A stretch of DNA of 64,000 bases. Source: an uncultured Pseudomonadales bacterium. GTDB taxonomy: Bacteria; Patescibacteriota; Microgenomatia; UBA1400; PJMF01. Each line of letters opens with the position of its first letter. The stretch's first letter is position 1. The stretch is taken from contig CAZKSJ010000002.1 in NCBI GenBank assembly GCA_964555515.1, positions 537 to 64,536 on the forward strand, in the 5' to 3' direction. Shown here piece after piece: positions 1,984-50,027 of the stretch. Made by a program: the position numbers and the translations under genes. The notes beneath the pieces are model-generated. The model was given only the letters and a program-made list of their open reading frames with translations, did no database searches and had not been told where the DNA came from.

Positions 1984-3243
1984 TTATGCTACCCATAATC
2001 CTTGAATAAATAAGACCGTATTAATCAATAATAGTATACCGGAAAATATCCAAATCCAGCGCCAGCGTGGAAATTTATCGAGTTGAATGCCTGCCCAAAC
2101 AAAGACTGGAAATGCCACCAGGAGGTATCTGGGCATGCTGGAGAGAGTGCCAGTCGTTGTGGGGAGCAAGACCGCAAGCGTCGTAAAGATAAGCCAGGAG
2201 TGTTTTATGCGTTTCTCCTGCATCCACAGCCAACCAATGATGATCAGGAAACTTATCGTCAAGAAAAACTCTTGGGCGTAGGTCAGCCATGTCAAGCTGA
2301 AAGGTACTGTCATCATAATTTTTAGACCCCGCCAAAGAGTTTGCGGCAATAAGATCAGATGCTCTTGCCTGCCTGCCCCGAACTCTGCTTGGACATGCAA
2401 GAAATAGAGAGGATCGCGGAACTCTCCCCACAAAAACAACATGTAAATGCCAATGCCAACTAAACCGAGGAGTGAAGAAATGACTTGCTTAGGATGGCTG
2501 CGTAGTTGCTGAGATAGTAGCTGCCAGAACTTATTCAATTTTTGAGTGAAACTCTGCTCATTGCTCTTAAATACTCGGCTGATTAGTGACGATACGTTCA
2601 GTGCCTCCCACAGTAAAGCTGGTACTAAAAACACGCCCACGACCCTAGTCGCAGCTGCAGCGGCAGCCAACAACCCAGCTAACCACCACCCTTGGTTGCC
2701 ACTAGCATAAAAAGTGCTTATCACAAGTAGTAAAAATAATGACTCTGAGTAGACCGCACCATGAAAGAAGCTGGTGGGAAATAATAAGAGTGTGATGAGG
2801 GCTAGCCAGGCTACATTGGTAGAGAATTGTTGGGCAGTGAACTTAAAAAATACCACTCCCCATAACAGGAGGGCAATGTTGCTGATCAACAGACCACTGA
2901 CAATCGTGTTATCGAACAATCGATTCAAAACCATCATTAGGTAAGGATATCCTGGAAAAAATGCTTGAATGAGTCCTGTACCAATGTATCCTTTTTCTGC
3001 AATGGTAATGTAGTGGACGCCATCAAAGTTTGCCCAAGAGTAAAGCCACTGCGGCAAGTTATATTTGGGTAATAATTCTGTAGCATATGGAAAACTAGGC
3101 TGATACATTATCAACCATGGGGCAATTATGCCAATTAAGATAAGCAGTGTTCGCCAGCCCAACAGTAATCCCATCACGGCAGATAATTCACTTTTTTTAT
3201 TTTTTAGCATTTTTGAAAAACTCCCATGTGATGACGACGACAA
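1984..3243 (-). CDS. Polytopic membrane glycosyltransferase, PIG-V/GPI-mannosyltransferase-like.
   Basis: Many predicted TM helices. Loop motif WANFDGVHYITIAEKGY...AFFPGYP resembles the PIG-V family signature. The true start is probably an internal Met, because the first ~40 nt overlap the upstream gene. Confidence 0.45.
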   Translation of the reverse strand: MSSSSHGSFSKMLKNKKSELSAVMGLLLGWRTLLILIGIIAPWLIMYQPSFPYATELLPKYNLPQWLYSWANFDGVHYITIAEKGYIGTGLIQAFFPGYPYLMMVLNRLFDNTIVSGLLISNIALLLWGVVFFKFTAQQFSTNVAWLALITLLLFPTSFFHGAVYSESLFLLLVISTFYASGNQGWWLAGLLAAAAAATRVVGVFLVPALLWEALNVSSLISRVFKSNEQSFTQKLNKFWQLLSQQLRSHPKQVISSLLGLVGIGIYMLFLWGEFRDPLYFLHVQAEFGAGRQEHLILLPQTLWRGLKIMMTVPFSLTWLTYAQEFFLTISFLIIIGWLWMQEKRIKHSWLIFTTLAVLLPTTTGTLSSMPRYLLVAFPVFVWAGIQLDKFPRWRWIWIFSGILLLINTVLFIQGLWVA

Positions 3244-4879
3244 GTCCGCTGATTGCTAACAGAGAAACCCAATTACCGATTTGCCGCGCCCAAGTATGTT
3301 GGGTGAAGCTAGACTCTACGGTGTAAGTTCCTGGATCTAATTCATATGCCAGCCGCCCAGCAATTTGGTCATTATTAATGTGATTTGCTTGATACTTATT
3401 CCCTTGATCATCGATCACAGTTGTCTCCCAGCCTGGGAAGGCCATCGTTGGCTCCACAATCGTCGCTTTTTCAAAGATACGAACCTGATAGCGTCGGTGT
3501 GAGCCAAACCACTCCTCTTCCGAAAACTCTCCTTGCCCACCCACCAAAACTAGCTCCTTATCCCAGTTAGGCATCTGATCAAACTGAGCTGTGACTGGTA
3601 AATTTTCATTATTGGTGGAGGTTGATTGGGTAAAAGCATCATAATCCACATTGGTTCGGTGAAAAAAGTCGGCTGGTTGAGCAGCCACAGCGGTACCAAG
3701 TTGGATAGCTAAGCCAATCACCAATAGACTCCGTGCAAATCTCCCACCTTCTGCCCAGATCCAGACCATCGGCACGAGCAAGAGCATGGGCAAATAGAGT
3801 GATAATCGCCAGGGGAATTGGATGAAGTTGGCAAGTGGGATCAGCTGCCAAATCGGTTCAGTCTGTTTGAGCTGAAATAACACAACAAGCAAAGCAAAGA
3901 ACAGCAACACCATCACGAGCTGATGATGAACTCGACAACTCTTAATAATCCTCTGCCAACCAATTAGAACCAATCCCAGGAGGATGGATACTAAAAAGGG
4001 CCAACCAATCTGAAAAGAGAGACTGTCTACAACTCCTGGATAAGAGAAACCAAACTGAACTGGTGAAAACAGTAATTGATTAAACTTAGGAAAGTGTTGA
4101 GCAAATTGATCTGCATTTTTGGCCTGATCAAGCACGATCATTGATTTTTCTGCCAAAGCCGGCAACCAAAACCATAAGCTTAATAAAATACCAAGCACCA
4201 AACTACCTAGCCAAGTCAACAACTTGCGATAATTAGATCTCATCCTAAGCAGTGCGTAAATTCCTAAGATGGGCAGAGCAAAAACCGCGCTGATATTATG
4301 ACTGAGTAAAAAAGCGGCTGTCAGAACCGACCAAACTCCAAATTGCCGCCATTGCCATTGACGATTAGCCAAAATTGATTCTATGACCCACAGCATCCAG
4401 GGAAATAGAGCATAGGCCATCACTTCACCAATATTACCGCGAAAGTTAATTAAGTTGATCAAATAGATCGAACTCACCCAACTACTGATGGCGATCACGT
4501 TTGCCCATCTAGAACTCGATTTAAAAACCAGATTTAGCCACAAATAGCCCCCCACCGCTCCAAAAATGATCGACAGACTCATCAATGCTTTAAACGTTAC
4601 TTCATAATTCAACTTGATGAATGAACCAGGCAAAGAAAGTATATTTGCCAGCGGGTAGTTATAGTTGAAAACGGGGTAGCCATACCTATTCATCAAATTA
4701 GGCGCCCAACGTGGTGGCAGCTGACCCTCGCGCAAGGCAATTTTATAATTTGCAAAACGTGCCAAGTGATTTTCACCGTCGTGGGTGTAAGGTACACCAA
4801 TCTGCATGTAATTATGCAGTAAAAACCAAATTGCCAAGATGACTAACAGCCAGGGCCAATGGTTGCGGATAAATTTCAT
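3197..4879 (-). CDS. GT-C-fold integral membrane glycosyltransferase, YfhO/PTPS-related family (paralog 1 of 3).
   Basis: N-terminal polytopic domain with the conserved motif YTHDGENHLARF...GYPVFNYNYP. C-terminal soluble domain contains FPGW and ends in a TM anchor. Same architecture as the ORFs at 10049 and 23994. Confidence 0.5.
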   Translation of the reverse strand: MKFIRNHWPWLLVILAIWFLLHNYMQIGVPYTHDGENHLARFANYKIALREGQLPPRWAPNLMNRYGYPVFNYNYPLANILSLPGSFIKLNYEVTFKALMSLSIIFGAVGGYLWLNLVFKSSSRWANVIAISSWVSSIYLINLINFRGNIGEVMAYALFPWMLWVIESILANRQWQWRQFGVWSVLTAAFLLSHNISAVFALPILGIYALLRMRSNYRKLLTWLGSLVLGILLSLWFWLPALAEKSMIVLDQAKNADQFAQHFPKFNQLLFSPVQFGFSYPGVVDSLSFQIGWPFLVSILLGLVLIGWQRIIKSCRVHHQLVMVLLFFALLVVLFQLKQTEPIWQLIPLANFIQFPWRLSLYLPMLLLVPMVWIWAEGGRFARSLLVIGLAIQLGTAVAAQPADFFHRTNVDYDAFTQSTSTNNENLPVTAQFDQMPNWDKELVLVGGQGEFSEEEWFGSHRRYQVRIFEKATIVEPTMAFPGWETTVIDDQGNKYQANHINNDQIAGRLAYELDPGTYTVESSFTQHTWARQIGNWVSLLAISGLVVVITWEFFKNAKK

Positions 4880-5910
4880 GATAACACTTGCTTGTAAACC
4901 TTAATTGTATCTTCGGCAGTTTTCTTCCAGGTGAATCCAGCCGCCCAGTGGGCAGCATCAAGCAGCCACTGCTCTCGAGATCGATTAGACCAAGATAGTA
5001 CTTCCTTGACACCCTCGGCGATAGCGTCCGACAATGGCTCGACATAGATGGCGTGTGATCCGCCAACTTCTGGCAATGAACCGCGTTTGGTGGCAACTAC
5101 AGGCGTCTGGCAATGCATCGCCTCCAATACTGGCAAGCCAAATCCTTCCGATAAAGACGGCTGCACATAACAAAGCGCGCCATTATAAATTGCTGCTAAA
5201 TCGGCGTTATCTTCTAAGCCAATGGTACTGATAAAATGCACTCTATCCGCTAGTTTATTTTTACTCATCGCCAACTTGATAGCTTGCCACTCAGGTATAG
5301 ACTGCTCCCGAAAGTTTTTGCCAATACAGACCAGCGTTATACCAGTCGGCAGATCGGCCACTGCTTTGATCAATTCTGGCAAGTTTTTATTATAATTTAT
5401 ATCCCCAACATACAGGATATATTTTTTTGGAATTTGATATTTATTGCTAATGGTCTCAATTGAAGAGGCATTTCCCAAACTAATATTTGGGTTTGCTGCC
5501 AAAGGTACGACGTGCATCTTCTCCTGCCTAATCCGCAGCAGCTCGGCTATTTGTTGCTTGGAATACTCTGAATCAGTAATCACAGCCTGCGCAAACCATA
5601 AACTGAGCTCTTGGCGTAATAAATTAAAACTGCCCCGTAAACCAGGGTGATGGGCTTTTGGAAATTCAAGTGGGATGACGTCATGAATAGTTACCACTGT
5701 TTTCTTTGACCTGTTGATGGGCAAAGTCGCTTTAAATAGATCAAAATAAGGATAGTGAACTAAGTCAGCTTGCCACCAGTTGTCATGGGGTGAAGTAAGT
5801 ATTTCTACTTTTTCCTCACGCAAAGCATCAATCAAACATTGGGTATACCTGCCAATCCCTCTGATTTGATGGCCAGTATGCAAGGGCAAGGTGTCAATAT
5901 AAATTTTCAT
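4876..5910 (-). CDS. Glycosyltransferase family 4 (GT-B fold).
   Basis: C-terminal EGFGLPVLEAMHCQTPVV matches the GT4 E-x7-E/EAMA signature. Overlaps its neighbour by 4 nt (ATGA). Confidence 0.8.
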   Translation of the reverse strand: MKIYIDTLPLHTGHQIRGIGRYTQCLIDALREEKVEILTSPHDNWWQADLVHYPYFDLFKATLPINRSKKTVVTIHDVIPLEFPKAHHPGLRGSFNLLRQELSLWFAQAVITDSEYSKQQIAELLRIRQEKMHVVPLAANPNISLGNASSIETISNKYQIPKKYILYVGDINYNKNLPELIKAVADLPTGITLVCIGKNFREQSIPEWQAIKLAMSKNKLADRVHFISTIGLEDNADLAAIYNGALCYVQPSLSEGFGLPVLEAMHCQTPVVATKRGSLPEVGGSHAIYVEPLSDAIAEGVKEVLSWSNRSREQWLLDAAHWAAGFTWKKTAEDTIKVYKQVLS

Positions 5911-6695
5911 GCCTTAGACTTTTCTCTGAGTGCCCAAACCTTAAACAAAACAAACGGATGATGCAGGCTACTCATTAAAGCAAAAATAAAGCCGCTCATG
6001 CCGTCCACATAACCACGATGGTGAAAAAACATGGAAAACAGTGTTGAGATTGGTTTGACAATCAAATACTGCCAAATGGTTGATTTTTGGATTGGCAAAA
6101 GATCAAGGCTAACTCGAGTGGCTTCAAATGAGGTATAAGTATTAAATTTTCTCATGTAGGCACTAAAATTGGGATATGGGTAATGAAGTAAGTGACCCTG
6201 AGCAACTCCAATTGCGCCATCGACCGTCATTTGCTCATGCACATTCTGCTGTGGTAATCTAGCCTTGCCCCTGATGTACAATCTGATCACTTCATCTGGA
6301 TACTGACCGCCTTTAGTCAATACGCGCCCAAAGAAATGATTGTAGCGAGCAATTTTCCAGGCCACTGGATCTTGTTTGTAGCTACCCTGCGCCAACTGAG
6401 TGGCTAGATTAGTAATGAAATCAGCCAAGATATTTTCGACCACTTCGTCGGCATCGAGTTGAAGAATTAAATCTCCCGTAGCAGCATCCATGGCCAGCTG
6501 TTTATTAATGTGAAAGTTTGGCTTGTTGGTGGTAGCTATTACCTTAGCACCAAACTTTTTAGCAATTTCTACAGTTTGATCAGTGGATTCGCCATCGGCA
6601 ATCACAATTTCATCGGCAAACCTCTTCACACTCTCCAAGCATCGTCCTAGGTTTAGTGCTTCATTGTGAGTGGCGAGGACAACAGAAATTTTCAT
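5907..6695 (-). CDS. Glycosyltransferase family 2.
   Basis: N-terminal ISVVLATHNEALNLGRCLESV...IVIADGESTD, a typical GT2 (GT-A) start. Coupled to the upstream gene by a 4-nt overlap. Confidence 0.75.
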   Translation of the reverse strand: MKISVVLATHNEALNLGRCLESVKRFADEIVIADGESTDQTVEIAKKFGAKVIATTNKPNFHINKQLAMDAATGDLILQLDADEVVENILADFITNLATQLAQGSYKQDPVAWKIARYNHFFGRVLTKGGQYPDEVIRLYIRGKARLPQQNVHEQMTVDGAIGVAQGHLLHYPYPNFSAYMRKFNTYTSFEATRVSLDLLPIQKSTIWQYLIVKPISTLFSMFFHHRGYVDGMSGFIFALMSSLHHPFVLFKVWALREKSKA

Positions 6696-6719
6696 ATTAT
6701 TTTATTAACTATATTAGAC

Positions 6720-8345
6720 TTAGAACTGACTCAATTGCCAAGTGTCACCTGTCCATTCAACTAATAACTGCTCTTCATCTCGGTCAGCTGGCTGACCAAT
6801 AAAATGATATTGGGCTACTTGTTGACCATACCTAAAACCAATTCTATCAGGTGCTTGTCTAATCACCGAGGAGAAAAACTCTTCGGGAGTGATTTTTAGA
6901 TACCAACTGAGCAGAATATACTGGTAACCGCTAGGGTCGACAATGGCGACGGCTTTATCTTGCGACTGATCATCAACGCGTTTGATAAATTCATCAAAGT
7001 CCGACTGAAAAATAGTGGTTTGGTGTGATGGATAGCGAGTAAAGTAGGCGATTAAGTAACGGCTAAAACAAATCAAGCTGACCAAAGACAACCCGACAAA
7101 TATGGATAACTCAAGTTTTCTCTTAGATATTTTCCTTATCGTGGCTATTCTTGGCAAAATATCCGCGAATACCAAGCTGATAATGATCGGTATCCAGGCA
7201 AGAAATAATAAACTACGAGTGGTATGGGGAGCGTCAGCGGTGATGGTGGCTGGTGCTAGCGCTATGATCAACACATACAACGCGATCAGCATTCGACCAA
7301 GTGATGAATTCATCCAAGGCTGGGCTATTGATTTAAAAAATGATTTGTTACCGCGAACCCGGCCAATCAGGTGAGAACTCGCTCTGTACATGATCCAAAA
7401 GATAGAAACTATCAGCAGCGCATAGACCAACCAATTGATATGACCCCAACCAGGTATAGAGTGCCATGGATGCGCCCCACCATTCACAACCAAGAAGTTG
7501 ACACCAAAGCTCGCGATCACTCTTTCAATAATTAATCGCCCATAATAAACATATTGGTTCCCAAATAAATTTAACCAGATACCCGAGAATTGAGCTCTAT
7601 AGGATGGATAAGCAGTAACAATTGTTTCATCAGCAAAGATGGTGATAGCACTTTTTTGAGTAGTTAAGGGAGCGAGGATCATCCACACAGCCATGAAGAC
7701 AATTAGTAGTCCAATTGATGTCACCACCCAGTTTCGATAACTGCGAGCGCCACGCATCACCAATATTAAGACAGCAAAAAAAGGCATGAGTAGCAGGGGT
7801 GTGTTATAAGTCAACGAGCAAATGACCAATAAAATTAGGGCTAATAAATCTCGCCACCAGATAAACTTGCTGTTCATCAATAAGATGAGCGCAGAGATGA
7901 GAATCCCAAGAGCCAGGTTGGCTTCAAAAGCCATTCTTGAGTAAAAGAAAAATACGGGCGATGAAGCTAGAATCATGGCTGCCGCTAAAGACCAGATCTG
8001 ACTCAACTTTAATCTCCTGGCTAAGATATAGATCAGCGCTGGTAGGATTGAGCCCGCCATCACCGACGGTAGCCGGACTACCCAATCTGCAGCAGGCAAC
8101 GCTTTGAAGATTATGGCAAGTAGAAATGGATATCCTGGCAACTTGTAATCGCCAAATGATTCCAAAGCCAGTGGCCAGCTTCTACCCCACTCATCTTGTC
8201 CAGTTTTTGAGAGTAGAAGTCCGTTATAGGCCAAGGCTGCTTCATCTCGATTGAGAATGTTGGGATTTTGCTCAATCTGCCAAATCCGCAGGAAAAAACT
8301 CACTACGACTACACCCAAAACTAGCCAATTATGAATTGACTTCAT
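6720..8345 (-). CDS. GT-C membrane glycosyltransferase, ArnT/PMT-like (GT39/GT83-type; family A).
   Basis: Polytopic protein. The first periplasmic loop carries NRDEAALAYNGLLLSKTGQDEWG...ESFGDYKLPGYPF, the DE...GD motif of ArnT/PMT_2 enzymes. Confidence 0.75.
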   Translation of the reverse strand: MKSIHNWLVLGVVVVSFFLRIWQIEQNPNILNRDEAALAYNGLLLSKTGQDEWGRSWPLALESFGDYKLPGYPFLLAIIFKALPAADWVVRLPSVMAGSILPALIYILARRLKLSQIWSLAAAMILASSPVFFFYSRMAFEANLALGILISALILLMNSKFIWWRDLLALILLVICSLTYNTPLLLMPFFAVLILVMRGARSYRNWVVTSIGLLIVFMAVWMILAPLTTQKSAITIFADETIVTAYPSYRAQFSGIWLNLFGNQYVYYGRLIIERVIASFGVNFLVVNGGAHPWHSIPGWGHINWLVYALLIVSIFWIMYRASSHLIGRVRGNKSFFKSIAQPWMNSSLGRMLIALYVLIIALAPATITADAPHTTRSLLFLAWIPIIISLVFADILPRIATIRKISKRKLELSIFVGLSLVSLICFSRYLIAYFTRYPSHQTTIFQSDFDEFIKRVDDQSQDKAVAIVDPSGYQYILLSWYLKITPEEFFSSVIRQAPDRIGFRYGQQVAQYHFIGQPADRDEEQLLVEWTGDTWQLSQF

Positions 8346-8459
8346 ATTACTATCTTAGCATTAATTCATTCTCAGCTGGCATAAGCTCTGTGTTTACACT
8401 CCACATAAACACGTTTCATCAATACATTCCTGGCCGCTTAAGCTATAATTTTGGGTGAA

Positions 8460-10052
8460 ATGTTACGAACTAAGACTAATAAAATATACAAATTAATCAC
8501 CCAAACAAATATTTGGATCGATAAGGCTAGCTTTTTTCAACTTAGTGTCGTATTATTTTTCTTCTCTTTTTTTGTCCACACTGTGTACGCATTAGGTCAC
8601 AATACATTTTTACAAGATTCAGCACGAGACATCCTGATTGCAGAAAACCACTTGGCTAATCAAGAGTTGATCGTTAATTATGGCCCAAAAGCGAGCGTTG
8701 GCAACTTCTACCTTCCACCATTTTACTATCAACTGCATTTAATAGTGACAGGATTGGTACCATTTTTTCCCCTTGCCATGAGATGGGTGATATTATTTGT
8801 GGAATCTTTCACTCCTGTGATGATTTTTCTACTGTTAACACTATTCATACCAAAAAGATCTGCTTTCTTCATCAGTCTATTATATGTTTTATTCCATCAA
8901 GTCTTGATTTATTCAACCCAAAGCTGGAACCCAAATATGATTCCATTTTTCACAACCAGTTTTTTGGTATGTTGGCTGTATTATATTAAAAACCATGATT
9001 ATGGATTGATTTATTTAGCTTTATTAGCTCTCGCCATCTCACTACACCTGCATTATCAGACATTCATCTTATTGCCATTTGCCTTGATAGTTTGGACTTT
9101 TTCGTTTATCAAATTTAAGACTGCAAGAAAACATTTGCTCCTCAGCCCATGGGTAGCTGCCATCCCGTTTTTGCCTTATTTGTGGGCAGAGATAACCAAT
9201 TCATTTATTAATACCCAAGCAATAATTGCTTTCTTTTCTCAAGAGCATGCGCTCTATTATGATCGGGTTTCAAAACCCGCCTATGTGTTGACATATTTTC
9301 CCTCATTTATGGAAAGATTGATATTTAGCAAAGAAATGCCTTTTCATTTCATCGGCAGCTTACTATTTTTTGGTGGCTTTTCTATTGCTTTAATTAAATC
9401 TAAGAATAATATTATTCTAAGATGGTTGTTGTTCTATTTTGGTATGGCGTTTGTGATACTAAGAGTCTTCAAAGGTGACAAATTGGATTATTACTTAATG
9501 ACTTTGTTTATATTACCCACTTTTTTATTAGCTTGCTATCGATTGATCTCAACAAGATTGACGGTTATTTTGGGTTCAATTATGCTAATTTTAATACTAT
9601 GGTATTTACCGACGCTGAAAACACATAATTTTTATCGGGACCTAAAACAAATCGTGTCGTTTATTGAAATTAAATCACCCACTCAAGATATTCAGGTCGT
9701 TTTTCACGACTTGAGTAACGCCAATTATCTTTACTACGGACTACTTAAATTTAGCAATCTCAGCATAGTGCCAGCATCAACTACTTTGGTTGATCTATGT
9801 CCTAGTTATGAAGCACAGTGCGCCTGGGACGGGATAGCCATGTGCAAACCAGGAACCCCAGATGATGAAGAAGTTTTCTGGTATGCACTCGATGCCAAGT
9901 ACCACAACGACTATAAAGTAATCAGCTACAAAAAAATTGATGATAAGTTTCAGGTAGCAATTGGTCAAGTCAACCAACCCAGATCTTTGCCAAATCACCC
10001 TCAACAGCATGACGCATCATGGTATGGTAGTGACTTCTTGATTCCTTTATGA
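8460..10052 (+). CDS. GT-C membrane glycosyltransferase, ArnT-like family B.
   Basis: Polytopic protein. Motif QDSARDILIAENHLANQELIVNYGPKASVGNFYLPPFYY aligns with the ArnT DEARY...GDW loop. Paralogous to the ORFs at 43559 and 50801. The track start at 8451 is TTG; ATG at 8460 is more likely. Confidence 0.55.
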   Translation: MLRTKTNKIYKLITQTNIWIDKASFFQLSVVLFFFSFFVHTVYALGHNTFLQDSARDILIAENHLANQELIVNYGPKASVGNFYLPPFYYQLHLIVTGLVPFFPLAMRWVILFVESFTPVMIFLLLTLFIPKRSAFFISLLYVLFHQVLIYSTQSWNPNMIPFFTTSFLVCWLYYIKNHDYGLIYLALLALAISLHLHYQTFILLPFALIVWTFSFIKFKTARKHLLLSPWVAAIPFLPYLWAEITNSFINTQAIIAFFSQEHALYYDRVSKPAYVLTYFPSFMERLIFSKEMPFHFIGSLLFFGGFSIALIKSKNNIILRWLLFYFGMAFVILRVFKGDKLDYYLMTLFILPTFLLACYRLISTRLTVILGSIMLILILWYLPTLKTHNFYRDLKQIVSFIEIKSPTQDIQVVFHDLSNANYLYYGLLKFSNLSIVPASTTLVDLCPSYEAQCAWDGIAMCKPGTPDDEEVFWYALDAKYHNDYKVISYKKIDDKFQVAIGQVNQPRSLPNHPQQHDASWYGSDFLIPL

Positions 10053-11806: not shown

Positions 11807-12522
11807 AAGTGATCGCCGTCATGCCCGCATTCAATGCGGCAGAGACCCTTGAAAAAACAGTGAAAGACATCCCAAAGGGAATTGTTGACCAGATTATTTT
11901 GGTTGACGATAATAGTTCTGATCAGACAGTCAAACTTGCCCGGAAGTTAGGTCTACAAGTGATTAAGCACCCACAAAACCGTGGTTATGGTGGTAATCAA
12001 AAAACTTGCTACACCCATGCACTCTCTGAAGGCGCCGATGTCGTGGTGATGATTCATCCCGATTATCAATATGATAGTAGTTTAACTAAGGAGATGGTTT
12101 TGCCCATCATGAACGGTAGAGTGGATGTGATGCTTGGCTCAAGAATTCGCAGTCGCGAGGAAGCCTTGGCGGGGGGCATGCCACTTTACAAATATTTTGG
12201 GAATAGATTTTTGACCCTGACTGAAAACTTATTGCTTGACCGAAACTTGTCTGAGTATCACACTGGCTTCCGAGCATTTCACAAAAATATTTTGAAAAAG
12301 TTGCCCTTCCATAAATACTCAGACGACTTTGTGTTTGATTCGCAAATCTTGTTTGGCACCATTGCCTTAAAGGCTAAAATAGGCGAAATTCAAGTGCCCG
12401 TCAGGTACTTTGAGGAGGCTTCGTCAATTAATTTTATGAGGTCATCCATTTATGGTTTGTCAATTTTGAGAGACTTGGGGTTATACGTCATCACTGACGG
12501 CAAGTGGTTTTTAAATAAATAG
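11803..12522 (+). CDS. GT2 polyprenol-phosphate sugar synthase (DPM1/GtrB/CsbB-like).
   Basis: N-terminal VIAVMPAFNAAETLEKTV...IILVDDNSSDQT and a short soluble GT2 of 239 aa. Translationally coupled (ATGA) to the upstream YfhO-like gene, the same pairing as the Bacillus csbB-yfhO module. Confidence 0.65.
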   Translation: MKVIAVMPAFNAAETLEKTVKDIPKGIVDQIILVDDNSSDQTVKLARKLGLQVIKHPQNRGYGGNQKTCYTHALSEGADVVVMIHPDYQYDSSLTKEMVLPIMNGRVDVMLGSRIRSREEALAGGMPLYKYFGNRFLTLTENLLLDRNLSEYHTGFRAFHKNILKKLPFHKYSDDFVFDSQILFGTIALKAKIGEIQVPVRYFEEASSINFMRSSIYGLSILRDLGLYVITDGKWFLNK

Positions 12523-12531
12523 CAGTTGCAG

Positions 12532-14292: not shown

Positions 14293-14305
14293 AGGGCATG
14301 TAATT

Positions 14306-17648: not shown

Positions 17649-17667
17649 GCAGCTCCATTGTAGCGGT

Positions 17668-18588
17668 CTATGATATAGCCTGTGAAGCAGTTGCACGGCT
17701 TCTGTGCCACCACCAATAAGGCCGCCAGATTAAAAATGATAACCTTTGCCAGAAATGACCATTCTTCCAAGTAAAACGATCGGCATTGCGCCAGCTAATT
17801 TTTTGCATTTCCTGAGCTGTCCATACTGATTGATGGGTGCTTTCATGTTTATGATAGATAATTGCTTTCGGCTCAAAGATTATTTGCAGTCCTCTTCGGC
17901 GAGCTCTAAATGACAAGTCAATATCTTCCCAATATGCCGGATAATATCTTTGGTCAAAGCCGCGCAGCGTCTGCCAATCATTTAGTCTAAACATGGAGCT
18001 ACCACCACTCGCCCAAGCAGTACTGCCATATTCAAAATTAGCTGCCTTGGCATGCTTAAACAAGCCCATTTCAAACCATAGTAAATTTTTACCACTCGGG
18101 TTAGATCCTGCTTGATCATCAAATTCCAAAGCCGTTACCGCAAACACTTTTGGATTTGACTCTAAAACCCGAGCCAAGTTGATAAAAGCTGCCGGATGTG
18201 GAGACGCATCATTATTCAACAACATGACCATTTCGTGACAGGCCAAAGATACTCCCAAGTTTGCGGCCCCTCCAAAACGCAGATTGCTTTCATTGGCAAC
18301 CAACATCAAATCAAGATGTTTTCCTTCAGCAGAATATGCTCCAGCATAATACCTGAGTTTGAGCAAATGTGGATCTGGAAAATAACCTTTAAGCAAATTA
18401 AATTCTGGTGATCTAGATTTTTTGAGCTTGAATTCACTACATAACCACGCAACTGTCTGATCATTGCTAGCATCATCACTAATGATTAACTGACTTCCAA
18501 ACGGTAGTGCTTTTAGCACAGCTGGCAGGTGGGTATGCAATAACTTTAATCCGTTAAAAGTCGGAATCACACAAGACACTTTAGTCAT
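17668..18588 (-). CDS. Glycosyltransferase family 2.
   Basis: CVIPTFNGLKLLHTHLPAVLKAL...IISDDASNDQT is a GT2 N-terminus. Start set at Met8 to avoid overlapping the upstream GT4 gene. Confidence 0.7.
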   Translation of the reverse strand: MTKVSCVIPTFNGLKLLHTHLPAVLKALPFGSQLIISDDASNDQTVAWLCSEFKLKKSRSPEFNLLKGYFPDPHLLKLRYYAGAYSAEGKHLDLMLVANESNLRFGGAANLGVSLACHEMVMLLNNDASPHPAAFINLARVLESNPKVFAVTALEFDDQAGSNPSGKNLLWFEMGLFKHAKAANFEYGSTAWASGGSSMFRLNDWQTLRGFDQRYYPAYWEDIDLSFRARRRGLQIIFEPKAIIYHKHESTHQSVWTAQEMQKISWRNADRFTWKNGHFWQRLSFLIWRPYWWWHRSRATASQAIS

Positions 18589-19702
18589 CAACTGGTTCCT
18601 GGTCAACATTAAACATATTATTCACCTTCTTGGCAAAAGTGCGCTCATTAAAATGACTGGCTCGCTCTCTCACCTTTACTCCCAAATCAACTACTTTAGG
18701 TGGATGTTTCATCAACTCCCAAGTATGGGAAACACATTCAGCCTGACTGTGCCATCCCAATCCAGATAAGTCTTCACCCAAGACCTCACGCTGACCCCCA
18801 GCCAAATATACAAGTGGCACACATGAAGCCGCCATCGCCTCGACAGTACTTATCCCAAAGTGTTCAACTGCTTCAGGACAAATATTCTCATCAATCCCGT
18901 AACCCGCTGCATGCCAATAAATGGTGGCGCTTTGATACAAATCAATTAGCTCTTTTCTAGATAAATTAGTTTTAAACTCTATTGGAAAACCCGTCGCCAT
19001 CTTTTTTAACTCTTTTAACCAAGTTTCATCCTCAGTTGAACCAGCTAAAACCAACTTCCATCTTTTTGTGACACTCTGATGGGTCAAACATAGCTTTTGA
19101 AACATTTCAATTAAAATATCTTGGCGTTTGGAGTGAAGCTGTTTAAAATATCTGCCTACATTCAAGATCATGGGCTCTTTATGAGGGCTACCGGTAAATT
19201 CAGCTTCATTAATCATGGGATGTAAAACTAAATTTACCTGCGCTCGCCAATTTTGCTCAATAATTGACTTGGTAAAATATGAGTTAGTATTGATGTGCCG
19301 CCAGTTTTTTAATTTCAAACGATCTATAGGAGAAGTAAGTCGATTGGAGAATGGTACCTGGACGTGTAGGTAGTTGTGATCAGCTAAACTAAAAAATAAT
19401 GAACCATCACTCACGTAATAAAGCCCATCATAACGGGCTGTCCAAAGTAGCTTAGATGCCGCAGATTGCTTTGAACCAAGAGGAGTTTCGACAAACTCAA
19501 TCGCAGCCAAATCTTGATTCATAAAGTTTTGATACTGTTTTTTAACATAACTCAATGTTTGATCCTTGGGCAGATGCTGGGATGAAACCGCCACACAAAC
19601 TTGATGGTTTGCAGCTGCCACACCCGCTACATCTAGTAAGTGCTTTTCGCCACCACCAAAATGATTAGGGAAATAGGGTGAATAAAAACAAATGTTCATC
19701 AA
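18581..19702 (-). CDS. Glycosyltransferase family 4 (GT-B fold).
   Basis: C-terminal EHFGISTVEAMAASCVPLV is a GT4 signature. The N-terminus MMNICFYSPYFPNHFGGGEKH is typical of GT4 enzymes. Confidence 0.75.
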   Translation of the reverse strand: MMNICFYSPYFPNHFGGGEKHLLDVAGVAAANHQVCVAVSSQHLPKDQTLSYVKKQYQNFMNQDLAAIEFVETPLGSKQSAASKLLWTARYDGLYYVSDGSLFFSLADHNYLHVQVPFSNRLTSPIDRLKLKNWRHINTNSYFTKSIIEQNWRAQVNLVLHPMINEAEFTGSPHKEPMILNVGRYFKQLHSKRQDILIEMFQKLCLTHQSVTKRWKLVLAGSTEDETWLKELKKMATGFPIEFKTNLSRKELIDLYQSATIYWHAAGYGIDENICPEAVEHFGISTVEAMAASCVPLVYLAGGQREVLGEDLSGLGWHSQAECVSHTWELMKHPPKVVDLGVKVRERASHFNERTFAKKVNNMFNVDQEPVDD

Positions 19703-20517
19703 TTATTTTTCCACATATCTGCCAATTCCTGCTCAAGCTTTTGGTATTTATCAGCAATGGTGGGGCTTTGTTGTCTTTCCCAAACCTGAATGTAGACCAA
19801 CATCCTATTGATTGCTTGAATGGTGGCTTCCATCAATCCCACCTGTCCATCTTTATAACCGCGATATTTAATCACTCTTCTTAAGAACTCACCAAATCCT
19901 TTTCTCAGTACCGTCAATAAGTTGACATTTGGGATACTTGAATCGGCCAGGAGCCTCGCTTCGATCGGAGTCCAGGCTGCTGATTTGATCAATCCAGATG
20001 ACACATTCCGATGGGAAAAGTGAACTAGCTGTGATTTTAGCGCCACACACTCACCCTGATATCGTGGACTTTCATGAATATCCCCAAACCATTCCACATC
20101 AGCGGATTTATGGAAGGCACGCGTCACCGTGTCTTCCGCCCAACCACCGTACATCAATTCTGTTCCAAAGAAAATATTCCTGCGAGCCATACTTAAAGCT
20201 GCAGTTTGTTTTGTTTCTATTGTTACGCCGATTTCTTTGGCCAAAGTAGGAGTGACTCTTTCATCGGCGTCAATATAAATAAACCACTCAGTGGAAACGT
20301 GTTTAACAGCCTCATTGCGTAGCTTGGCAAAAGAAGGGTGCTGAAAATGGATAACTTTTGCGCCTTGTTGTTCGGCGATTTCTGCGGTCTTATCTGTAGA
20401 ACCAGTGTCGATCAACAAAATTTCCTGGCACCAACGCAACGAATTTAGACAACCCGGCAACATTGATTCTTCGTTTTTAGCGATGATGACGGCAGTGATG
20501 GGTAGATGGTGGTTCAT
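19699..20517 (-). CDS. Glycosyltransferase family 2.
   Basis: ITAVIIAKNEESMLPGCLNSL...LLIDTGSTDKT. Overlaps both neighbours by 4 nt. Confidence 0.7.
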   Translation of the reverse strand: MNHHLPITAVIIAKNEESMLPGCLNSLRWCQEILLIDTGSTDKTAEIAEQQGAKVIHFQHPSFAKLRNEAVKHVSTEWFIYIDADERVTPTLAKEIGVTIETKQTAALSMARRNIFFGTELMYGGWAEDTVTRAFHKSADVEWFGDIHESPRYQGECVALKSQLVHFSHRNVSSGLIKSAAWTPIEARLLADSSIPNVNLLTVLRKGFGEFLRRVIKYRGYKDGQVGLMEATIQAINRMLVYIQVWERQQSPTIADKYQKLEQELADMWKNN

Positions 20518-21431
20518 ATGACTGGTTGTTTACCCCATTGATGAAGCACAAAGTGTGTGGCCGCTTTGCGATCTAATGGATTTTTAGACGAAAGCAATTG
20601 GAAAAACACGCGTCCCACATTAAATTTTGTTCGCCAATCGCCGTATCTGAAGAAAAAAATGAGCCGATTTCTGTTTTGAAAATACTGATGCAAACTTGAT
20701 CCCACCCCATCACTTGATCCAGCATTGACGTGCCAGACCTTAGCTTCATCTGAATAATGTATTTCGTAGCCTAAGTTTTTAACCCGCATTGATAAATCTG
20801 TGTCTTCAAAATATAGGAAGTAGTCATTATCTAGACTGCCAATTTTCTCCAAGATCTCTCTCTTCAATAACAAACAACACCCTGTAGCAAAATCAGATTT
20901 GGTCTGTTCTGCAAACTGTCCTTTGTCAATCTCGTCGACACCTCGATGAAAAGCAGACAGATTATCCCAATCGATGCTCCCGCCAGCATACCAGATCACT
21001 CGTCCGCGATCATCATCTTGATAGCTGTCATAGAAATATTCTCTACCAGCCTGAAAATATATTTTAGGTGAAATGATACCGCACTCAGGATGAACCTCAA
21101 GATAATTAATTAAGTGATTAAAGAGCTGTTCATGAACAACCGTATCATTATTAATTAGCATCACATAATCAACCGACTGTTTCTCGATGGCATACTCAAT
21201 ACCCATGTTGTTACCACCTGTAAAACCCAGGTTAGATTCGCTACGAATCACATCAATCCACTTCAATTTTCTCAACGCCTTCGGCAATGCATACTCAGTT
21301 GCTGAACCGTTATCTACCACAATCACTTGAACTTGATGATTGCCAATATCCGCAGCGACAATGCTTTTTAAGCACTGTGAGGTGAGCTCGTCAGAATTAA
21401 AGTTGACAATGATAATTGCGACTTCGGCCAT
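20514..21431 (-). CDS. Glycosyltransferase family 2 (rhamnosyltransferase-like GT2).
   Basis: VAIIIVNFNSDELTSQCLKSI...VIVVDNGSATE...MLINNDTVV, the pattern seen in WbbL-type GT2 enzymes. Confidence 0.7.
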   Translation of the reverse strand: MAEVAIIIVNFNSDELTSQCLKSIVAADIGNHQVQVIVVDNGSATEYALPKALRKLKWIDVIRSESNLGFTGGNNMGIEYAIEKQSVDYVMLINNDTVVHEQLFNHLINYLEVHPECGIISPKIYFQAGREYFYDSYQDDDRGRVIWYAGGSIDWDNLSAFHRGVDEIDKGQFAEQTKSDFATGCCLLLKREILEKIGSLDNDYFLYFEDTDLSMRVKNLGYEIHYSDEAKVWHVNAGSSDGVGSSLHQYFQNRNRLIFFFRYGDWRTKFNVGRVFFQLLSSKNPLDRKAATHFVLHQWGKQPVI

Positions 21432-21485
21432 TTGTTTATTATATACCTGTTATTATTATTCAATTAGGTGCTAGATATCAATCTA

Positions 21486-22394
21486 TTATTTGCTAATTCG
21501 CTTCTTAAGCTGCCACCATTTTTTGGTAACTCCTTGAGAATTTGCTACCCGTTCGGCTGCTAACCAGTAAGCCAACTCGCGCTGTAGTTGCTCCACCGCC
21601 TTCATAACATCCCCCTTTGGCTGATGAGTTAGTGGGCACCCCTGCAATTCCCAAGCCTTTAGCTCTACGACTAATTGATAAGTACTTTGTAAAAATGACA
21701 AGGCAATGCCATGCACATCTTCACTGATCCCTTCTTCGGCAAACAAGCGGCGCATTAATTCCTGCCGATAGGTATCAATCAACTGACTAGGCTGAATCGT
21801 CAATTGAGACTTACCCTCCTTAGCAGAAATAGTCGTGTATCGATCTAAGCGCTGCAGATAATCACTTACCGAGCGATAATTATGGTGCTCGATGGCTAAA
21901 TCCTCAGCAACGGGCAAGTACTCAATCTGACCCTCAATGATTGGTTGGCTGTGAATTTCATTGCGCCACTTCACTTTGCCACGCCTAAATAACCGTGGTT
22001 GGTAGTCTGGCCACCAGCCAGTTTTTTGAATCCACTTGCCGAAGATGATGTTCTTACGAGCGATAAAATAGCAGGACACATCTGGGTCTTGAGTGACCAC
22101 CGTCTCAATTTTTTTCTTTAAGCCGCTGGAAATTATTTCGTCTGCATCCACCAACAATACCCAGTCAAACTTGGCTTTGCTCAAGGCAAAGTTGCGGGCT
22201 GGCTCAACGTACGACACATCCTCTTTAAAATCATAAATTTTTTCAGTGAATTTCTTTGCAATCGCCTTACTATTATCACTGCTCAGCATATCTACCACCA
22301 CAATCTCATCAGCCCACTTCACAGACTGGAGAGTGTCTTTGAGGGTTTCCGCCGCATTTTTGGTATTGATTACTACAGAAACTTCTGCTGCCAT
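21486..22394 (-). CDS. Glycosyltransferase family 2.
   Basis: VSVVINTKNAAETLKDTLQSV...IVVVDMLSSDNS...LLVDADEI. Confidence 0.7.
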   Translation of the reverse strand: MAAEVSVVINTKNAAETLKDTLQSVKWADEIVVVDMLSSDNSKAIAKKFTEKIYDFKEDVSYVEPARNFALSKAKFDWVLLVDADEIISSGLKKKIETVVTQDPDVSCYFIARKNIIFGKWIQKTGWWPDYQPRLFRRGKVKWRNEIHSQPIIEGQIEYLPVAEDLAIEHHNYRSVSDYLQRLDRYTTISAKEGKSQLTIQPSQLIDTYRQELMRRLFAEEGISEDVHGIALSFLQSTYQLVVELKAWELQGCPLTHQPKGDVMKAVEQLQRELAYWLAAERVANSQGVTKKWWQLKKRISK

Positions 22395-22425
22395 AAAATG
22401 TCTCCATTAACATCGTACAGGGTCT

Positions 22426-23991
22426 TTACCGATGTTGCAAAAGTGAGCTAACTTCAAACTTTAATTTTTGATATCCGGTGAGCACTATCACAACTACGTA
22501 TGCTAGGCCGGTTAACACCATTCCCACAAACATCATCGGTAGGCTACTCAACCACCACGACATACCCAGAACTCCAAAGACTGCCATCACTAGACTAGCC
22601 AGGATCTGGCGCCAAACCTGATCCCATGGTTCTATAGGCACGTATTTTTTCACCAACCAAAACGGAATTACTGAAGATAAGCTGATCACCAATGCAGAGA
22701 TAGCCACGCCTTCATAACCAAATTTAATAACTAGCAATGGTGTCAGCAACCAAGTTAATGCTGTCCAAAACACCATTAGTTTTAAAGTGGTGGAAATTTT
22801 GCCAATCGCGTTGAGAGTGTTCGTTAACGGGGTGGACAAGGCGCTGCCCAAAATACTTAAGGTAAACAAAATCACGCTTAAAACAGCTGGTTGCCACTTG
22901 TTATATTGTGGAATTAAAGTGACTAGCGGATAAATAAATACTGACATACCAATTAAGATAGGAAAGATTGCCAAGGATATAAAAAATAATGACTTTTCAA
23001 TCGCTCTTTTTAGCAAATGAGTTTGGCTTTGCAGCCGCGAAAAAGTAGGAAATGTCACCGCCATCACGTTCTGGACCGTCAAATTATAGGGATACATGGA
23101 CCAGTTTTTTGACCACTGTACATAGCCAAAGTCCTTTAGAGGCAAGTACAAACCGAGTGCTAAGAAAAAGAGGTTGTCCTTGATCCGTGCCAACAAATCA
23201 TTTAACTGAAACTTAACTCCATAACCCAGTAGTTTTTTTACTGAGGAAGCATAGATACCAATCTTTGGCCACCAAGGCTTGATGGAGTACATGACTATCA
23301 CCCCCACAATCGAGCGACCAATGATGGCCGGCGCATAAGCCATCGCCCCCAAACCCTGCCATGCTAATGCTACCAACACAATATTAAACAATAGTTGTTC
23401 CACTATTTGTGGAATCACCAATTTAGAAAAGTCTAACTCCCTTTCTAACTGAATAGCTGGAATGGTTTTTAAAGAAGCCAGGGGAAATGAGAAACCTAAG
23501 GCCAGCAGAATCAGATTGGCGGCGTTTGAGCCGGTTTTTTCTAGTAAAAACCCTGATAAAACAATCAGCACACAAACAGCAAATATTAGCCATGACAAAG
23601 CCTGCTGCAAGGAAAATGCAGTTGCATAGTCATGATCAGTTGGCTCTGTTTTTGATTGAATTAAAGCAGCGGCCAGGCCGATATCTGAAAAGAAAACCAA
23701 GATACCAATGATCTGCACCACGATTCCATAAACAGCAAAGTCCTCAGGGGAGAAAAAAGAACTCAAGATAAAGATAGTCACTAAGCCAATTGCTTGCAAC
23801 AAAATTGTTCTCAAAAAAAATGAAGCTGCCCCACGCACAGACTGGCGTTTGACATGCGCCACATATTGGTCTGTGGTCATGGCGGATTGAGACGCTGCCA
23901 AAGTTGGTGAAGGTACGGTCTCATTTGAATTAGGCTCGGCCACGGTCAATAAAGGTACTCGTACTGTTGGAGTCAAATTTTTTTTGGCCAT
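22426..23991 (-). CDS. Wzx-type oligosaccharide flippase (MOP/polysaccharide biosynthesis protein family).
   Basis: About 14 predicted TM helices and a typical MOP flippase layout. Start set at MAKKNL (23991), 2 nt after the stop of the upstream gene. The track's 28-aa N-terminal extension overlaps that gene. Confidence 0.7.
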   Translation of the reverse strand: MAKKNLTPTVRVPLLTVAEPNSNETVPSPTLAASQSAMTTDQYVAHVKRQSVRGAASFFLRTILLQAIGLVTIFILSSFFSPEDFAVYGIVVQIIGILVFFSDIGLAAALIQSKTEPTDHDYATAFSLQQALSWLIFAVCVLIVLSGFLLEKTGSNAANLILLALGFSFPLASLKTIPAIQLERELDFSKLVIPQIVEQLLFNIVLVALAWQGLGAMAYAPAIIGRSIVGVIVMYSIKPWWPKIGIYASSVKKLLGYGVKFQLNDLLARIKDNLFFLALGLYLPLKDFGYVQWSKNWSMYPYNLTVQNVMAVTFPTFSRLQSQTHLLKRAIEKSLFFISLAIFPILIGMSVFIYPLVTLIPQYNKWQPAVLSVILFTLSILGSALSTPLTNTLNAIGKISTTLKLMVFWTALTWLLTPLLVIKFGYEGVAISALVISLSSVIPFWLVKKYVPIEPWDQVWRQILASLVMAVFGVLGMSWWLSSLPMMFVGMVLTGLAYVVVIVLTGYQKLKFEVSSLLQHR

Positions 23992-23993
23992 AA

Positions 23994-25805
23994 CTAATCC
24001 CTTTGTTGGCGCTGGTGGTAAAAAAAAGTCAACACCACCAGCAAAGCCACAGCAGATATTACATCCGCCCACCATCTAATCGGTGTTGATGCAAAGTTAA
24101 TCCCCACCAAGTGCTCACCCGCTGGCACCAGTACTTGGATCAAGCCATCTTTATCGATTGTTGTTGGCACGCGCTCTCCATCAACCTCTGCTACCCACCC
24201 CGGAAAGTACGCCACAGAAAAGCTAATTTGACTATCATCAGTCTGTGCCAACTCGATCAACTTCTGATGCGTTCTATTTACTAATACTTTGTCCACCAAT
24301 CTCTCACCTTCATCGAGATTGCATTCAGGATCACACTTAAATGGTTGAGTTGGAGCCTGGTCAATCAACTTAAAATCTTTGGGCATAAAGTCCGGTAAAA
24401 TGCCACTCATCTGCTTCTGAATCTTCAGCTCGTCTGCATAGTACAGTTCTTCTGGGTTATCAAGTAACGATTCTGCTTTAAAGTACCGAAAGTTGCCTAA
24501 AATTAAGAGGATGAGCACTCCTGCAACCAATAACCTACTTGGAAAGCTTTTTACTAAGCGCGTGGCATAACCAATCATAAGTCCGGAAAAAACTGCTGTC
24601 ACAGCTAAAAATCTCCACGGAAATTGCACGTATCGCAACAATTCAGTACCTTCCCAAGCAAATAAAGTTTTCTCGGTAGCCAACAGAATGCTCATGGCAA
24701 ATAATAAGCACGCCGTCCACAGCAAGCCGTGCTGCCAAAGAAATTTTTGCCTCAACTGACGCTGATGCCAGAAGAGTCTAGCCGTCAACAAGCCGGTGAT
24801 AAAAATTCCCACCAACTGTCCCCAACCTAGAAAAAAGGAGATGCCATCTTCCGGTCCCCAAACCGATCCACCATATCCCCAATATGGCGTAAATAACTGC
24901 CTTAAATAAATAAAATGAAGATGAAAATCAAAGTATCCAGAGATGATCAACTTCTCCACCATAGTGTAATGTTTCTCAGTAAATGCAGGCAATAAATAAA
25001 ATGCCGACAACGCTCCCGCCAGAACGTAGGCGGTGCTAAATTTAGGCAAATATTCTTTGACATCTTCCAGCATGATTTTGCGAAGATGAGATGAATTATT
25101 CTGGCTCACTTGATTGGCATTAACCCACATCCATTTGAATCCCAACCATAGCAACACAAACAATAAGGCAAACGGAACAAAAATAAGAGTCATTAAGTTA
25201 TGACTCAAGAAAAGAGTGCACAAACTGAGCAATAATATCCACAAGCCGTGTTTTTGTCGTTTCAATATTAGCACTGACCCATATAAAACCATGACTCCAG
25301 CCATCATCCCCCAGGCTTCACCCAAAGCACCACGGATGAATAGATTAACTGCCCGGTATGGGGCGAGCGTAATTGCTGCAGCCGTCATTAATCCACCCAG
25401 GCGCCCAAAGAGTGACTTGCCCAATAAATACGCTGCAATGGCTGTACCTAGTGTTGCTAACCAAAACAATAACTGAACACTGACGGGCAAAGAGAAACCA
25501 AATAGCCAAAATAGAGCACCCAAGTAATAAGGAAGAGGGGCATAAAACTCAAACAAAGGCATGCCGTAACCGTATCCAAGGTTTTGACTCCAGCGGACGG
25601 GAAAGTGACCATCTTGTAATGCCCTGCCCATTTCCGCAATTCTTGCGCCATGTACATAGTCGTGGGTCTTAATCATGCCTGGTTGAAGTAGTTCCCATGA
25701 CGCAGCGAACACAAGTGCAGCTAGTATCATTCCCACCAAAATCCGCTTCATAGATAGTATTGTAGCGTAATCAGTGGTTATAATGTGCACTGATGGCAGA
25801 TTCAT
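23994..25805 (-). CDS. GT-C-fold membrane glycosyltransferase, YfhO/PTPS-related family (paralog 3 of 3).
   Basis: Motif IKTHDYVHGARIAEMG...GYGYGMPLFEFYAPLP. C-terminal AYFPGWVAEVDGERV...VPAGEHLVGINFASTP followed by a TM anchor. Confidence 0.5.
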   Translation of the reverse strand: MNLPSVHIITTDYATILSMKRILVGMILAALVFAASWELLQPGMIKTHDYVHGARIAEMGRALQDGHFPVRWSQNLGYGYGMPLFEFYAPLPYYLGALFWLFGFSLPVSVQLLFWLATLGTAIAAYLLGKSLFGRLGGLMTAAAITLAPYRAVNLFIRGALGEAWGMMAGVMVLYGSVLILKRQKHGLWILLLSLCTLFLSHNLMTLIFVPFALLFVLLWLGFKWMWVNANQVSQNNSSHLRKIMLEDVKEYLPKFSTAYVLAGALSAFYLLPAFTEKHYTMVEKLIISGYFDFHLHFIYLRQLFTPYWGYGGSVWGPEDGISFFLGWGQLVGIFITGLLTARLFWHQRQLRQKFLWQHGLLWTACLLFAMSILLATEKTLFAWEGTELLRYVQFPWRFLAVTAVFSGLMIGYATRLVKSFPSRLLVAGVLILLILGNFRYFKAESLLDNPEELYYADELKIQKQMSGILPDFMPKDFKLIDQAPTQPFKCDPECNLDEGERLVDKVLVNRTHQKLIELAQTDDSQISFSVAYFPGWVAEVDGERVPTTIDKDGLIQVLVPAGEHLVGINFASTPIRWWADVISAVALLVVLTFFYHQRQQRD

Positions 25806-25873
25806 TTAAAACTAGCAACCCTGCATACTACTCTCTCGCAGAAGGCGTGCCAGAGAAAACACAGCCTGCAGAG

Positions 25874-26950: not shown

Positions 26951-26962
26951 GTTTTTAAATAT

Positions 26963-27187
26963 ATGCCAAAAAATACTCAATTTCAGCCGCTGCCAATATT
27001 AATGGTTAACCGAATCTTAATCGTGATCGTGATCGGACTTGCTATTTTAGCGGGTTATTTTCACGCTAGAATGAGTAACGAAATTAGGATATCTGAACGC
27101 CTATTGAGCAACTACCAAACTTGCCAGCAAGCACTGGTGAATTTGGCTGATGCCGATGATCAGCCTGCTGTAGAGTCATTAGAATGA
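26963..27187 (+). CDS. Small hypothetical membrane protein (74 aa).
   Basis: Single hydrophobic helix ILIVIVIGLAILAGYF. Sits between the LCP gene and rmlB. Confidence 0.3.
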   Translation: MPKNTQFQPLPILMVNRILIVIVIGLAILAGYFHARMSNEIRISERLLSNYQTCQQALVNLADADDQPAVESLE

Positions 27188-27212
27188 TCATAATTTGGAT
27201 TTATAGGTATAA

Positions 27213-28277: not shown

Positions 28278-28278
28278 T

Positions 28279-28812: not shown

Positions 28813-28839
28813 TTATTAACTCTTTTTAAAAACAACAGA

Positions 28840-29733: not shown

Positions 29734-29753
29734 AACTTGGTTAATTTTGATTA

Positions 29754-50025: not shown

Positions 50026-50027
50026 AA

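Follow-up and report, generated by a model that had tools for sequence, protein, structure and literature searches.

Three Paralogous GT-C-fold Membrane Proteins with Distinct Conserved Partners in a Microgenomates-type Glycan Locus

Introduction

The YfhO family (PF09586), which includes YfhO of Bacillus subtilis and Staphylococcus aureus, Listeria Lmo1079 and streptococcal PgtC2, PgfM1 and PgfM2, is made up of membrane proteins with a glycosyltransferase C (GT-C) transmembrane (TM) core and an extracellular domain that separates the last two TM helices, and its members are paired with a family 2 glycosyltransferase (GT2) that makes a lipid-linked sugar. The extracellular loop of the B. subtilis protein is 389 amino acids long, and the catalytic residues have not been identified (PMC5836110). 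Here we describe three paralogues of the same overall plan, A, B and C, encoded in a 64-kb stretch of contig CAZKSJ010000002.1 (the window, by which we mean the whole stretch of DNA that was analyzed). They have a GT-C fold, an Asp residue in their first extracytoplasmic loop is invariant, and each has its own conserved genomic partner, which for B is a GT2 and a candidate for making the lipid-linked sugar. Homologues that match the YfhO model do so co-linearly, with YfhO positions ~54–397 corresponding to the TM core and ~760–829 to a β-sandwich and the terminal helix. In contrast, the ~360 positions of the YfhO ectodomain in between (~400–760) have no counterpart in A, B or C, which carry a sandwich of ~130 residues in place of the 389-residue loop.

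Mycobacterial PpgS (Rv3631) makes a polyprenyl-phosphate-linked sugar that is used outside the membrane by the GT-C enzyme Rv3779. Both PpgS and the haloarchaeal AglJ-type dolichyl-phosphate hexose synthases resemble the GT2 next to B in being GT2 proteins of ~240 amino acids with no TM helices, although the partner GT-C enzymes in those systems belong to other families than B. A second parallel is provided by lactococcal WpsI and WpsJ, polytopic proteins of the GT-C clan that are encoded beside a Wzx-type flippase in a locus for a rhamnose-containing cell-wall polysaccharide and whose functions have only been proposed (PMC12599335). The likeness to C, which also lies beside Wzx in a rhamnose polysaccharide locus, is one of locus and fold class; WpsI and WpsJ belong to a different Pfam family (DUF2142).

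Sequence identity with the solved GT-C enzymes (AglB/PglB/STT3, ArnT, Pmt1/2/4, AftD, AftA and ALG12) is 7–14%. The loop-1 motif of A, B and C is HD..H..R rather than the DxD or DE of the solved enzymes, and they have no WWDYG motif, MIR domain or TPR domain of the kinds found among these. The oligosaccharyltransferases (OSTs) STT3, AglB and PglB in particular have a C-terminal domain with WWDYG that is absent from A, B and C, where the ectodomain is a 130-residue β-sandwich. The Pfam family PF10131 is named PTPS_related, after 6-pyruvoyl-tetrahydropterin synthase (PTPS), and is listed as a member of the GT-C clan (CL0111) with unknown function (PMC7801869). Protein A is above its threshold, B and C are not, and none of the three has a PTPS domain.

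Relationship of A, B and C

The three open reading frames (ORFs) had been picked out in an earlier note on this DNA, and they exist where it had placed them (Table I). Their mutual homology is confirmed by BLASTP, which gave E = 1e-18 with 28% identity over 383 amino acids for A and C, E = 9e-16 for A and B, and E = 1e-27 for B and C in an alignment spanning the full length; the nine remaining GT-C-like ORFs of the window gave no BLASTP match to any of them. Judged by their sequences, A, B and C are clear paralogues, with homology well beyond chance. The start of C was taken as position 25751 and not 25805, because the public gene call, which begins at Met-19 and gives 585 amino acids, agrees with the divergent spacing of ~40–60 bp between C and the LCP gene that is likewise seen in the orthologous loci L072, L073 and L074.

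A search with B found 266 homologues. Within each of the A, B and C orthologue groups identity is 40–50%, and between the groups it is 20–28%. Together with the joint occurrence of the groups in the same loci and contigs, this shows the triplication to be old and to have been retained.

GT-C Fold and Topology

AlphaFold2 models of A and C, built with family alignments, reached a pLDDT of 93.2 and a pTM of 0.93 for A, and 94.9 and 0.94 for C. The two models have a common plan, in which TM1 is followed by a ~65-residue loop with two short helices, ten further TM helices (TM7 and TM9 are each followed by a longer loop), the ~130-residue β-sandwich and a final TM helix. This amounts to 11 + 1 = 12 TM helices in both models, as opposed to the core of 12–13 plus a terminal helix that had been proposed earlier; of that proposal, the FPG(W/Q) motif, the soluble domain in the C-terminal part and the last TM helix are present in all three proteins. 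The ectodomain is a single β-sandwich of about 121–133 amino acids.

Topology was assigned from the helix boundaries of the models and from counts of Lys plus Arg over 84 homologues. These residues make up 0.19–0.43 per residue in the loops and termini assigned as cytoplasmic, against 0.055–0.08 in the ectodomain and the long loops placed outside. This bias supports 12 TM helices with both termini in the cytoplasm, and it puts the HD..H..R block at the beginning of extracytoplasmic loop 1, where the earlier note had put it, and neither within the membrane nor on the cytoplasmic side. In the model the Asp of the block is 8 residues past TM1, and all other invariant polar residues are located in outside loops or at the outer ends of helices.

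When the model of A was compared with solved structures, the first 20 matches were all GT-C enzymes, with scores of 16.2 for AftD, 15.8 for ArnT, 15.7 for ALG12 and 15.2 for AglB, and the GT-C match that had been anticipated was found for the models of both A and C. Two features by which membership of the superfamily was judged, a core superposable on solved GT-C enzymes and an acidic residue in loop 1 just after TM1, are both present. A sequence search of the PDB with protein C alone and a search with the family profile revealed no relative, the sole match being a chance-level PEGA-like stretch (E 0.95), so no solved structure represents this family. Given the GT-C fold, a reading of the "HD" as that of an HD-phosphohydrolase was rejected.

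Conserved Residues

Conservation was assessed in an alignment of 363 sequences, comprising 360 homologues (the best 120 for each paralogue) together with A, B and C. The Asp of HD is 100% conserved (Asp-34 in A, Asp-40 in B and Asp-31 in C, numbered from Met-19), and in A numbering His-33, Asp-34 and Arg-41 of the motif are conserved at 99–100%. The second His is also kept but with a spacing specific to the subfamily: HD-x3-H-x2-R in A, HD-x2-H-x3-R in B and HD-x2-H-x2-R in C. The N-terminal block reported to be common to the three proteins is thus real and far beyond chance, although the single regular expression used to describe it masks a one-residue shift between subfamilies. In 27 B-type sequences D-I-W-H-x-V-x-R is invariant, and the consensus of the C type is HDxxHGAR.

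Downstream of the motif, Gly-67 and Pro-69 of GYGxP are conserved at 95–100% in all three subfamilies, as are Lys-97, His-194, Pro-240, Gln-268, Gly-292, Trp-344, Pro-356, Arg-358 and Tyr-413 (A numbering). Lys-97 is at the outer end of TM2, His-194 in the TM5/6 turn and Arg-358 at the start of TM10. Conservation also extends to the FPG(W/Q)...G block in the C-terminal part.

Family Placement and Distribution

Protein A matches PF10131 with 51.6 bits against a gathering cut-off of 26.4, over the TM core and from residue 91 onward, whereas B and C gave no match to this model at E ≤ 0.1. No Pfam or NCBIfam match of any kind was obtained for B. Against YfhO (PF09586), A and B gave no match and C scored 19.2 bits, under the cut-off of 28.5 and at model positions 773–824 only; C also scored 23 bits against the PgfM1 model, on its C terminus. 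The PF09586 gathering threshold is unmet by all three proteins and is passed by a few orthologues, one of which (P0024) scores 48.6 bits. The profile searches called for in the earlier note therefore place A in PF10131 but put none of the three in YfhO. Because their scores are sub-threshold and ~360 ectodomain positions are absent, A, B and C are not YfhO members by the criteria of that family. They are uncharacterized new members of the PF10131 lineage in the GT-C clan, and short relatives of YfhO.

Among 84 homologues, 42 match PF10131 (E ≤ 1e-3), 14 match YfhO, 8 match PMT_2 and 5 match the AftD GT-C domain. The PF10131 model begins only past the HD..H..R block, ~65–90 residues into these proteins, and the Pfam definition thus leaves out their most conserved motif. 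Some orthologues are named "6-pyruvoyl-tetrahydropterin synthase-related protein" by NCBI; a pterin role was rejected, as A, B and C have no PTPS Pfam domain and the family name is historical.

At E ≤ 1e-3 the family profile matched 36,603 representatives of clusters formed at 50% identity, of which 9,723 remained at E ≤ 1e-30. Named matches come almost entirely from Patescibacteria of the Microgenomates group, including Pacebacteria, Woesebacteria, Daviesbacteria, Gottesmanbacteria, Amesbacteria, Blackburnbacteria and Levybacteria. Across the loci L004–L068, the nearest relative of the window is that of Patescibacteria bacterium UBA1388 (L035), at 88% over the first 165 amino acids of B. Many Microgenomates-type loci in this set are titled "uncultured Pseudomonadales," "uncultured Gammaproteobacteria," "Vitreimonas sp." or "Limisphaerales," apparently placeholder or wrong labels.

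A tblastn search against plasmids gave 7 weak matches only, two of which served as distant relatives that carry the loop-1 block outside the Patescibacteria. One, from Monoglobus pectinilyticus (Clostridia; L069, 5533–7668), is a protein of 711 amino acids with GHDLNFHLYR, YYPGY and an N-terminal extension of ~150 residues; it gave no Pfam match and is encoded immediately behind a GT2. The other, from Aeromonas caviae (L070, 5845–7593), has 582 amino acids and the sequence HDLFHH, and at 25.6 bits it is just under the PF10131 cut-off. Four proteins, P0361 (1116 amino acids), P0362 (1093), P0365 (1670) and P0363 (3329), contain 2, 4 or 6 family-profile matches each; these could be tandem paralogue fusions or merged gene calls.

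Genomic Partners

Each paralogue has a distinct partner. Directly downstream of A is a PMT_2/PIG-V-like GT-C gene that overlaps it by 47 nucleotides, an order kept in 7 of 10 loci. Fifteen of the best 120 A orthologues (e.g. P0127, P0128, P0130 and P0138) are fusions of the two proteins, 917–951 amino acids long, and residues 549–946 of P0138 are 45% identical to the downstream ORF of the window (E = 4e-95). On this comparison the A fusion constitutes a Rosetta-stone link between two putative GT-C enzymes.

The end of B overlaps by 4 nucleotides (ATGA) with the gene for a GT2 of 239 amino acids, whose best NCBIfam matches, AglJ, PpgS, haloarchaeal dolichyl-phosphate hexose transferase and PgfS, are all polyprenyl-phosphate sugar synthases. 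A co-directional GT2 directly follows B in 39 of 60 loci, and in 25 of these 39 it is of the AglJ/PpgS-like type. The GT2 genes near A and C are not of the polyprenyl-phosphate-sugar synthase type.

The partner of C is a Wzx-type MOP flippase immediately downstream. This pair is conserved in orthologous loci, with the order C-C-Wzx elsewhere. It belongs to a block (17668–29733) in which trmD, rmlD, rmlC, rmlB and LCP are accompanied by the divergent genes for C, Wzx, three GT2 proteins, a family 4 glycosyltransferase (GT4) and a further GT2, and the gene order of this block is kept in L072, L073 and L074 with C orthologues that are only 42–44% identical.

Table I. Positions of the three paralogues, their domains and related genes in the window
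Feature	Coordinates	Strand	Remarks
Paralogue A	3197..4879	-	ORF, 560 aa; GT-C fold membrane glycosyltransferase (PF10131)
A, HDGENHLAR motif (H33-R41), start of extracytoplasmic loop 1	4757..4783	-	Translation checked; topology from Lys + Arg
A, extracytoplasmic β-sandwich domain with FPGW (3428-3439)	3293..3682	-	
A, C-terminal TM anchor and K-rich cytoplasmic tail	3203..3292	-	Model helix 530-559; sequence checked
Paralogue B	10049..11806	+	ORF, 585 aa; family shared with A and C, no Pfam match of its own
B, HDIWHQVAR motif	10163..10189	+	Alignment; translation checked
B, ectodomain with FPGQ (11603-11614) and terminal TM (11723-11800)	11360..11800	+	Alignment to C
Paralogue C	23994..25751	-	585 aa from M19; ORF open to 25805 (603 aa)
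C, HDYVHGAR motif	25641..25664	-	Alignment; translation checked
C, β-sandwich ectodomain (FPGW 24195-24206) and terminal TM (24000-24083)	24000..24482	-	DSSP of model
PMT_2/PIG-V-like GT-C directly downstream of A	1984..3243	-	Pfam and NCBIfam; overlaps A
GT2, candidate polyprenyl-phosphate sugar synthase	11803..12522	+	Overlaps end of B
Wzx-type MOP flippase immediately downstream of C	22426..24075	-	Polysacc_synt_3, 1.6e-46
LCP glycopolymer transferase and rmlB/C/D, divergent from C	25793..29733	+	Pfam and NCBIfam
GT2 fused to GtrA/DPMS transmembrane domain	52355..53554	-	Domain matches
Twelve GT-C-like ORFs, starting at 1984, 3197, 6720, 8451, 10049, 12532, 14306, 16017, 23994, 43559, 46918 and 50801	1984..52342		

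Proposed Function and Alternatives

We consider it very probable that A, B and C are extracytoplasmic transferases, which pass a polyprenyl-phosphate-linked sugar to a rhamnose-containing, Wzx-exported and LCP-attached wall glycopolymer or to surface proteins, each paralogue catalyzing a different step. The active site would lie on the outer face of the membrane and would comprise the loop-1 H-D-(x2-3)-H-(x2-3)-R together with Lys-97, His-194, Gln-268, Arg-358 and Tyr-413, whose roles are proposed from their positions. By analogy with the loop-1 Asp or Glu of ArnT, PMT, PglB and ALG6, the invariant Asp may act as the catalytic base, and the Lys, Arg and His residues may similarly hold the phosphate of the polyprenyl-phosphate-linked donor, whereas the β-sandwich could help to bind the glycan acceptor. 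The three enzymes would be non-redundant. B would pair with the soluble AglJ/PpgS-type GT2 as the supplier of a polyprenyl-phosphate-monosaccharide donor, an arrangement that the three-component logic of CsbB/YfhO (or PpgS/Rv3779) fits best; A would act in series with the PIG-V-like GT-C that is sometimes its fusion partner, and C would work directly with the Wzx flippase. The identities of the sugars and their acceptors cannot be read from the sequence.

Several observations weigh against this assignment. Although Foldseek agrees with a GT-C fold, the global TM-scores to solved GT-C enzymes are only 0.31–0.43. The GT2 adjacent to B scores far below the AglJ and PpgS equivalog cut-offs, no GtrA/GtcA-type small flippase adjoins A, B or C, and the Aeromonas relative keeps HD..H with a Ser in place of the motif Arg.

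An alternative, unlikely but to be taken seriously, is that C, and possibly A and B, carry out en bloc transfer or polymerization of a Wzx-flipped undecaprenyl-diphosphate-linked oligosaccharide, either as a GT-C polymerase or ligase replacing Wzy/WaaL or as an OST-like enzyme. No domain of the Wzy or WaaL type was recognized in the window, the His-Asp-His cluster could bind the metal that diphosphate-linked donors need, and a precedent has been proposed in WpsI and WpsJ (PMC12599335). However, A, B and C have neither an OST-type domain nor a WWDYG motif, and no Pfam Wzy_C or O-antigen polymerase domain was found in them at E ≤ 0.1. A bolder proposal, which we regard as doubtful, is that His-Asp-His-Arg and the invariant His of the TM5/6 turn form a metal- or pyrophosphate-binding center that defines a distinct GT-C subclass, with the C-type enzyme, always coupled to Wzx and LCP, as the missing polymerase or ligase that serves in place of Wzy in the Wzx-dependent pathway for a cell-wall polysaccharide in Microgenomates. 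If this were true, a dozen GT-C enzymes would assemble the greater part of the surface glycan of these ultra-small bacteria outside the cell.

The earlier note had likened the three proteins to YfhO, and the GT-C fold, the outward-facing loop-1 motif and the YfhO-like plan all held up. That they are true YfhO orthologues, transferring N-acetylglucosamine (GlcNAc) from C55-P-GlcNAc to lipoteichoic acid (LTA), is nevertheless very improbable, and neither the family membership nor this reaction is supported. The architecture is of the same type, the C-terminal sandwich and terminal TM helix match the ends of the YfhO and PgfM1 models, and B has a GT2 partner comparable with the CsbB of YfhO, but A fits PF10131 and all three proteins fail the YfhO threshold and lack most of its ectodomain. 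Three paralogues with different conserved partners also speak for three separate reactions, the window showed no genes for LTA synthesis, and even true members of the YfhO family vary in donor and acceptor (LTA, wall teichoic acid and Ser/Thr-rich protein regions). Hardly credible at all is a non-catalytic role, as scaffolds, lipid-carrier binders or flippases of GT-C fold comparable with PIG-U/GAB1 of the glycosylphosphatidylinositol transamidase, since the best matches are all active transferases and since an invariant Asp at the canonical loop-1 site, with invariant basic residues and His around it on the outer face, marks a catalytic site.

Bacteria of the candidate phyla radiation (CPR), or Patescibacteria, are mostly uncultured episymbionts whose surface chemistry is essentially unknown. 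Our additions are the three conserved partnerships and a group of invariant residues that falls outside the Pfam model, for a trio from a very large, uncharacterized family. The fixed partners and the invariant residues of the outer face (H-D-H-R, K, H, Q, R and Y) offer concrete, testable handles on PF10131 and the related YfhO enzymes. No new kind of system is revealed, and GT-C enzymes in a CPR glycan locus will not surprise a specialist.

Other Genes of the Window

Together the twelve GT-C-like ORFs take up 19.7 kb of the 64-kb window (31%), a remarkable outlay for the small CPR genome, of Microgenomates type, from which the window comes. Besides A, B and C with their HD, they comprise five PMT/PMT_2-like proteins with (D/E)E after TM1, three PMT_2-like proteins with D..(A/G)RD (starting at 8451, 43559 and 50801) and one PIG-V-like protein. 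Right past TM1, where A, B and C have HD, the PMT_2-type ORFs have the classical motif in the form RDEAAL, IDEMAM, WEEVAL, WDEAAI, ADEAIY or D..RD. ORF 8451–10052 was considered as a further member of the A/B/C family and rejected, because its hhalign comparison with the family profile was insignificant and BLASTP identified it as a paralogue of the PMT_2-type ORFs at 50801 and 43559.

Also present in the window are GT2 and GT4 genes, Wzx, LCP, rmlBCD, a GT2-GtrA fusion, a GDP-mannose dehydratase and a UDP-glucose dehydrogenase. Its domain content suggests that the GT2-GtrA fusion is a polyprenyl-phosphate-sugar synthase joined to a putative flippase. It is flanked by a PMT_2 GT-C (50801–52342), a GT2 (50028–50804), a GDP-mannose 4,6-dehydratase (53551–54540) and a UDP-glucose dehydrogenase (55471–56781), and the genes around it form a second glycosylation module. 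Pfam and NCBIfam scans recognized no initiating phosphoglycosyltransferase or Wzy-like gene among the ORFs of the window, and gave no match for the ORFs at 48694–50025 (-), 30630–31775 (+), 33322–34194 (+) and 533–949 (-). The first of these, of 443 amino acids, stands at the head of the second glycan module and is a possible candidate for a membrane polymerase or ligase.

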